A stretch of 2,411 bases of DNA, from assembly GCF_003334305.1 (NCBI RefSeq), contig NZ_QOWS01000055.1; one strand, 5' to 3'. Shown in pieces: positions 2,021 through 2,396 of this stretch (position 1 is its first letter; every line of letters starts with the position of its first letter). Below the pieces are notes generated by a model. The model had not been told where the DNA came from, made no database searches, and saw only the letters and a program-made list of their open reading frames with translations. This DNA comes from Escherichia coli. GTDB taxonomy: Bacteria; Pseudomonadota; Gammaproteobacteria; Enterobacterales; Enterobacteriaceae. The translations under genes and the position numbers were made by a program.

Positions 2021-2048
2021 CTTAACAAAACGCCGGATTTCCCCCGGC
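2021..2048 (-). terminator. Candidate Rho-independent terminator for a minus-strand transcript
   Basis: Perfect all-GC 5-bp stem GCCGG (2032..2036) / CCGGC (2044..2048) with a 7-nt loop. On the minus strand this hairpin is followed directly by GTTTTGTTAAG (reverse complement of 2021..2031), a U-rich tail. On the + strand no T-run follows it directly. Confidence 0.3.
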
Positions 2049-2352
2049 TCTGAAAGTAAGGCTTCGGTTATTTGCACTATTTTATCTCTGTTGAATTTGG
2101 TTAAGTCGGTGCAGACTCATCAACACAAGTACGGTTCGATGCAAACAGCTGTGACTGGCAATATGAAAGGAATGATGAATCAGTCAGGATGACAAAGTGC
2201 CGGCTGACCGGAGGGGACGCAGGAAGATTCACGGGGGGACCAGCACCAGGGAACAGCGCCACATCCCGGGTGGTACTGCTTTGATGCGCCCGGTGACACA
2301 AAGCCCGGATTGTTCCAGACATCCTGAATTAAACTGTAGTGGCACACTAAAT

Positions 2353-2380
2353 TTGGCCACCTGATGAAAGGTGATATTCT
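2353..2380 (+). promoter_or_regulatory. Putative sigma70 promoter for the downstream gene
   Basis: -35-like TTGGCC (2353..2358), 16-nt spacer, then an extended -10-like TGaTATTCT (2372..2380). This would place the transcription start about 20 nt upstream of ATG 2407. Weak consensus matches, hand-assigned. Confidence 0.25.
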
Positions 2381-2396
2381 CACCACAACACAAAAC

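Follow-up and report, generated by a model that had tools for sequence, protein, structure and literature searches.

A terminator-like hairpin in an eroded CP4-like island of Escherichia coli most probably stems from the coding sequence of a UCP030791-family pseudogene

We report that the minus-strand interval 2021..2390 of a 2,411-nucleotide stretch of Escherichia coli DNA (the whole stretch is referred to as the window) is very probably a mosaic of decayed genes of a CP4-like island, and that the "terminator" at its left end is a coding-sequence hairpin that was inherited by a pseudogene and does not mark an RNA gene (we set the probability of this reading at roughly 85%). On the basis of its letters, the interval had been proposed to give a minus-strand transcript that ends at a terminator at 2021..2048 and to be either an RNA gene or a frameshifted remnant of a small gene (the original prediction). 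The anatomy of the interval, the homologies of its parts, the junctions between them and the occurrence of the same hairpin in intact homologues can all be read directly from the genomes compared. All components are of kinds that are already annotated, i.e. a UCP030791-family pseudogene, an IS3-family element and genes of CP4-like islands, and nothing new is present.

The window is E. coli chromosome within a CP4-like genomic island. It is 100% identical to the chromosome of strain A7, and many other strains match it only to 2334. The left flank is annotated as a sugar-utilisation cluster, and the right flank as YagK/YfjJ and inovirus Gp2-type genes together with genes for zinc-ribbon proteins, DUF932, antirestriction, RadC and YeeU/CbtA, which are typical CP4-like island genes. 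The DeoR-family regulator gene (247..1032) and the divergent ribokinase-like, FucP-like permease and aldose-1-epimerase genes (L001 2657..5946, strain A7) resemble, as we presume, the deoQ/deoK-type deoxyribose-utilisation cluster of pathogenic E. coli. Where islands are well preserved (L004, L005 and L142), the gene order on the sense strand is YagK/YfjJ, a 186-191-aa hypothetical gene, an AlpA/excisionase-like HTH gene, a small Cys-rich ORF, a leader of approximately 110-160 nt, the UCP030791 gene, an ECs1377-family gene and a 77-aa gene. The features of the window are the following:

250..1032 (also given as 247..1032), plus strand: DeoR-family regulator, annotated neighbourhood on the left side.
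1034..1260, minus strand: ACT-domain (ilvN-like) pseudogene, annotated neighbourhood.
1562..2077, minus strand: degraded full-length gene for a 'UCP030791 family putative phage-derived protein', GTG start at 2077..2075.
2024..2031, minus strand: T-run GTTTTGTT, formed by codons R16 (last two bases of CGT), F17 (TTT) and V18 (GTT).
2032..2048, minus strand: hairpin GCCGGG-GGAAA-TCCGGC (GCCGGGGGAAATCCGGC) with 6 pairs, 5 of which are G-C, and a loop of 5.
2078..2179, minus strand: conserved non-coding leader of the UCP030791 gene, in which alignments give the near-invariant blocks TCCTGACTGATTCATCATTCC and GTCTGCACCGACTTAACCAAAT.
2101..2322, minus strand: ORF of 73 aa with an ATG start.
2180..2253, minus strand: 3' remnant of the small Cys-rich ORF that follows the AlpA/excisionase-like HTH gene in intact islands.
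2180..2386, minus strand: ORF of 68 aa with a GTG start.
2254..2263, minus strand: microhomology TGTGGCGCTG of 10 bp at a deletion junction, the window being equal to L140 up to the motif and to L012 from the motif on.
2264..2334, minus strand: internal fragment of the 186-191-aa hypothetical island gene, cut on the right by the insertion sequence (IS).
2303..2320, minus strand: second terminator-like hairpin, GTCTGGAACAATCCGGGC and then TTTGTGTC, within the coding fragment D-V-W-N-N-P-G-F-V and of equal quality to the first.
2335..2411, plus strand: left end of an IS3-family insertion sequence, with an inverted repeat that begins TGTAGTGGCACAC and the orfA ATG at 2407.

The identity of the DNA around the hairpin follows from the gene that begins at 2077. 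A distant blastn search with 1900..2334 against complete E. coli genomes gave thousands of matches, in which a minus-strand gene starts exactly at the equivalent of 2077. With five intact homologues as queries, tblastn matches were colinear across 2077..1562 (E = 2e-28 to 4e-23). The first in-frame stop, at 1940..1942, leaves an ORF of 45 aa (1940..2077, begins VQITEALLSEPGEIRRFVKQAVDHWPHLLAIHFTLHST), which corresponds to the first 38 residues of the intact 165-182-aa proteins at loci L003, L004, L005, L008 and L009 and is nearly identical to these. An identical 45-aa ORF is annotated (PGAP) as WP_001349745.1, 'UCP030791 family putative phage-derived protein', in NZ_CM188248.1; the name UCP030791 is used here as given by the RefSeq annotation, its only source, and neither this protein nor the 186-aa protein had a significant match in NCBIfam, PHROGs or Pfam. 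Homology to the family thus extends over the full length of the gene and includes the conserved C-terminal end ...FTALKATLQSFTFPVVAGIFR*, and the reading frame is broken. The window copy, which has a stop after codon 45, at least two frameshifts (one of them near 1860) and more stops beyond, is therefore a pseudogene and not a functional member of the family.

Compared with the intact gene of strain TUM9812 (L003), the sequence is 99% identical between 2334 and 1965, and beyond 1965 the identity drops sharply. This indicates that the pseudogene is itself a mosaic, in which the 5' end and the leader look recent and the body is far more degraded; this suggests that it arose by recombination between island copies. 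Farther to the left, the approximately 300 bp at 1261..1561, i.e. between the ACT-domain pseudogene and the end of the UCP030791 pseudogene, are 93-100% conserved in approximately 1600 E. coli genomes including CFT073 and carry no annotation in any of the records listed. A remnant of the ECs1377-family gene, which was expected at 1261..1561, was not detected by tblastn of the window, nor was any remnant of the HTH gene.

Upstream of the leader the interval is composed of pieces that belong apart in intact islands. The piece at 2264..2334 is derived from the 186-191-aa gene, which in intact islands has the YagK/YfjJ gene on one side and the HTH gene on the other; together with its continuation in L002 it matches residues 97-132 of the L142 protein (tblastn, E = 2e-11, 58% identity), and in L140 and L141 the fragment is annotated as a pseudogene. 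At 2254..2263 the window stops following L140 (in the 186-191-aa gene) and begins to follow L012 (in the small ORF). The remnant of the small ORF in the window, at 2180..2253, lacks the first three of the five cysteines. The deletion at this microhomology took out the 186-191-aa gene towards its 3' end, the HTH gene and the beginning of the small ORF. Both parental arrangements survive in other strains, with L140 as the left and L012 as the right parent. Comparison of the strains shows the history of the locus, in which L012 (APEC E956) represents the state before the deletion, L002 (strain 165) the state after it, and the window (A7) the state after an additional IS event. Read along the sense strand, the order is IS3 end (2411..2335), gene fragment (2334..2264), junction (2263..2254), Cys-rich tail (2253..2180), leader (2179..2078) and the UCP030791 remnant from 2077.

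The plus-strand gene placed at 2407 by the original prediction does have its ATG there and is orfA of the IS3-family element. The whole element in strain A7 is 1259 bp (L001 8335..9593, with the right repeat at about 9593); both inverted repeats were found and the CDS is annotated as joined by programmed frameshift. Its left end presumably resembles that of IS911. The flanks, TTAAAC and CTTTTA, show no target-site repeat, and the DNA to the right of the IS in A7 differs from what follows 2334 in strains that lack the IS; the missing duplication and the foreign right flank together point to an IS-associated deletion or rearrangement. The same IS3-family element is present elsewhere in APEC E956, at L012 3581, which is equivalent to window position 1581 and lies inside the pseudogene. 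That the IS occupies different sites in A7 and APEC E956 points to IS-mediated rearrangement of the locus.

With respect to the hairpin, the description in the original prediction was accurate: the GCCGG/CCGGC stem is present and is followed by a U-rich tail on the minus strand only. Directly 3' of the hairpin the minus strand reads GTTTTGTTAA (U-run noted as GUUUUGUU, interrupted by a G), and on the plus-strand side TCTGAAAG follows, so that the T-run is confined to the minus strand. The formal pattern of an intrinsic terminator, i.e. a G+C-rich stem-loop and then a U-run, is therefore there with a weak energy; folded alone, the hairpin has about -10.6 kcal/mol (centroid, z = -1.5), and 19 of 200 shuffled sequences were equally stable. 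Moreover, the window contains 4 terminator-like sites and dinucleotide-preserving shuffles give 2.0 +/- 1.2, which means that the pattern is not more frequent than chance gives. The hairpin at 2303..2320 shows how easily such sites arise in this region.

What the hairpin is can be seen from its position. Counted from the GTG at 2077, it begins at the third base of codon 10 and ends at the first base of codon 16 of the UCP030791-family pseudogene (E-P-G-E-I-R-R), and with the T-run it makes up codons 10-18 (E-P-G-E-I-R-R-F-V). A terminator is expected at the 3' end of a transcription unit, after a stop codon or an RNA gene, and this site is at neither. Intact homologous ORFs (166-182 aa) contain the identical hairpin, and the T-run in homologues is GTTTTGTT or GTTTTATT, encoding R-F-V or R-F-I. 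The terminator scan marks the same site within two intact genes, those of L008 (169 aa) and L004 (182 aa), and full-length transcripts must consequently cross the site in those strains; the hairpin is probably not an efficient terminator. Of the proposed minus-strand transcript, the strand stands, as the minus strand is the sense strand and the island genes all run from right to left, and the terminal position falls. Hairpin and T-run appear to have been inherited unchanged from relatives with an intact gene, which would make them a by-product of the coding sequence. Any minus-strand RNA from the interval would stem from read-through or from what transcription is left of a dead operon.

To what extent the hairpin is conserved as a structure was addressed with 84 homologous loci from annotated genomes, viral contigs and metagenomes. 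Their 5' coding sequences are of 24 distinct kinds, and the intact coding sequences obtained numbered 35 distinct ones. The GCCGG/CCGGC stem is constant in nearly all open-frame copies and variation is mostly in the loop (GGG/GGA; GAA/GAC/GAT); the stem is disrupted in several pseudogenes (CCAGC; ATCGGGG) and in one open copy (GCCGC). According to RNAalifold the stem pairs are identical in 27-28 of 28 sequences with no double-sided change, in a family too little diverged to separate structural from coding constraint. A protein-guided scan with one genome per species gave only 2 loci, which makes this a narrow family in which covariation tests are of low power. Codons 1-10 have a pairwise synonymous diversity of 0.05 and codons 11-20 one of 0.105 (0.04-0.24 in other 10-codon windows); the value at the hairpin is within the range of the rest of the gene, and there is hence no sign of extra constraint at the nucleotide level. 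The four third-codon positions in the stem are invariant in open copies apart from the one GCCGC variant, and given that 9 of 24 such positions vary nearby, the chance that none of the four does is approximately 0.13 by our own count. Some selection on the structure of the hairpin is conceivable on these data.

The leader (2078..2179) is the other conserved part of the locus. When the leaders of the window and of three relatives were scanned for promoters, no sigma-70-like site was shared. The block TCCTGACTGATTCATCATTCC (2141..2161, minus strand) is kept even in L006, L008 and L019, where the DNA farther upstream is unrelated and AT-rich; it has no sigma-70-like match and may be a putative regulator-binding or promoter element of the UCP030791 operon. 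A second near-invariant block, GTCTGCACCG..TT.AC.AAAT at 2095..2116, can pair with 2003..2031 (minus strand), i.e. with the T-run and with codons 19-23; the ribosome-binding site, the start codon and the hairpin would all lie inside the paired segments (alignment columns 208-229 with 306-328). When 28 representative leaders with 5' coding sequence were folded with RNAalifold, the leader block GTCTGCACCGGCTTAACAAAAT paired with codons 16-23 (approximately 17 pairs), and L008, L005 and L043 have the long-range helix in their minimum-energy folds. We did not accept this helix, given a covariation term of -0.55 kcal/mol and single-sequence z values of -0.44 to +0.72.

Among the alternatives, the one that survives best is a conserved intragenic attenuator, in which transcription of the leader stops at the hairpin and U-run under some conditions, a short leader RNA is released and the UCP030791/ECs1377-family operon is controlled in this way, with the window holding a dead copy of the switch. 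Hairpin and U-run are indeed found in essentially every intact homologue, and the block GTCTGCACCGGCTTAACAAAAT can pair with the U-run and codons 19-23 as seen in the three minimum-energy folds. Against this, the covariation term amounts to one compensatory event set against several broken pairs, the z values just given show no excess stability, synonymous sites near the hairpin show no stronger conservation than those in the rest of the gene, and the invariance of the leader block is partly circular in that the block was fixed by our own search pattern. The stem is short (6 bp) and the U-run interrupted; furthermore, the long-range partner lies downstream of the U-run and would be unable to act before the terminator is transcribed. 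We consider such a switch improbable, and slightly more so its extension, modelled on the same hairpin/U-run and leader block as an attenuator or riboregulator, in which the eroded copy of the window might still release a short leader-derived RNA.

An independent small RNA gene on the minus strand, at about 2050..2330 and ending at the hairpin, is less likely still. Nothing but the formal terminator pattern and the absence of a convincing protein-coding ORF in 2078..2334 speaks for it. However, its supposed 3' end falls within coding sequence, and the stretch, a chimera put together recently from three unrelated pieces that were joined by deletion and cut by the IS, is not conserved as a unit. 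Folding of the minus-strand RNA, which had been suggested as a check, gave -87.3 kcal/mol for 2021..2334 compared to -86.7 +/- 5.1 for shuffled sequences (z = -0.12), i.e. the RNA is no more stable than the shuffles; for the plus strand of 2021..2334 z was +0.45. Against Rfam the window had no match at E <= 1 and two intact relatives had matches at chance level only, and a tRNA/tmRNA scan found none present. A scan limited to sigma-70-type promoters found no site on the minus strand in 2050..2411, the sole minus-strand site in the window being at 1981..1952. Of the marks of a small RNA gene (its own promoter, excess stability or a known family, conservation as a unit) none was thus found, and in the literature on UCP030791, ECs1377 and yagK/yfjJ we found nothing on transcripts at this locus. 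The reading as an RNA gene, for which no compensatory changes were seen either, finds no support. The mosaic reading, on the other hand, agrees in part with "a frameshifted remnant of a small gene": the interval does consist of gene remnants, among them the 3' end of the small Cys-rich ORF, and the frameshifted pseudogene itself begins at 2077.

The two minus-strand ORFs overlap in different frames and have no ribosome-binding site, exactly as had been noted; the Shine-Dalgarno sequence is absent at proper spacing at both by direct reading. The first 17 codons of the ORF at 2180..2386 lie in the IS end; the ORF then runs through the gene fragment and over the junction to stop within the small-ORF tail, and so crosses both the IS boundary (2334/2335) and the deletion junction (2254..2263). 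The ORF at 2101..2322 is open in the closest relatives only. As judged from the sequences compared, both are accidental frames of the history of the locus. That either one (73 or 68 aa) encodes a real small protein is the least credible of the alternatives, since, although the second ORF exists in strains without the IS as a 64-aa, ATG-initiated form and is sporadically annotated in E. coli as a hypothetical protein, in the window it is an IS end and an internal fragment of one gene fused to the tail of another, its database relatives are only E. coli fragments that vary in frame and length, the 73-aa frame is broken by stops and indels in more distant homologues, and searches of both window ORFs against NCBIfam and PHROGs gave no family match.

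The sole lead of some value that we see in the analysis is the small Cys-rich ORF of intact islands. It is conserved directly after the AlpA/excisionase-like HTH gene (L004 3270..3383, minus strand; also in L005, L009, L013, L020 and others), and its start ATG overlaps the HTH stop as ATGA. The sequence is MKRVVMPVRWQCAKC(Q/R)RWYCG..PCPWCW followed by a variable tail (30-51 aa), with five cysteines. The CxxC motif is retained in the forms CAKC, CARC and CSTC, with switches between TGT and TGC (synonymous and internal changes), and in the Cys frame third codon positions account for 10 of the 16 variable columns in the first 62 nt (estimated P approximately 0.016, by our count). A second, hydrophobic frame was considered as the coding frame and rejected on the same two grounds, i.e. 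the location of 10 of 16 variable columns on third positions of the Cys frame and the retention of CxxC. The ORF lacks annotation in most records and is sporadically annotated as hypothetical, and the annotation in L142, WP_001342704.1 (41 aa), reads a frameshifted variant of it. The ORF of intact islands looks genuinely coding, and its product is a candidate zinc-binding microprotein.

With this result a false candidate for an RNA gene can be dropped, as it is the E-P-G-E-I-R-R-F-V codons of an annotated, uncharacterised island gene that produce the terminator pattern. The result also calls for caution in eroded islands, where a short hairpin with a T-run, or ORFs that run over IS ends and deletion junctions, should be checked against intact relatives first.

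Compared to known systems, the site is like the intrinsic (Rho-independent) terminators of E. coli in having a G+C-rich stem-loop and an immediate U-rich run on one strand only. It differs from them in that the stem is short, the U-run is broken and about two such sites are expected by chance per window, and in that it is located 30-54 nt inside an ORF that is intact in homologues, and not past a stop codon; no compensatory changes were seen in the 28 sequences of this little-diverged family. The element at the right end has what is seen in the IS3 family, i.e. terminal inverted repeats that begin with TG and end with CA and orfA/orfB with an annotated programmed frameshift, and departs from the norm of the family in that this copy has no target-site duplication (AAC on the left, CTT on the right). 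With the UCP030791 family, an uncharacterised 165-182-aa protein of CP4-like islands in E. coli, the window copy shares the leader, the GTG start and colinearity over the full length; in contrast to the intact members it is a pseudogene. Finally, the gene content and order of the flanks (YagK/YfjJ, inovirus Gp2-type, zinc-ribbon, AlpA-like HTH, DUF932, antirestriction, RadC, YeeU/CbtA) are the same as in CP4-type cryptic prophage-like islands of the CP4-6 and CP4-57 kind, of which the window holds a copy heavily eroded by deletion, IS insertion and pseudogenisation.
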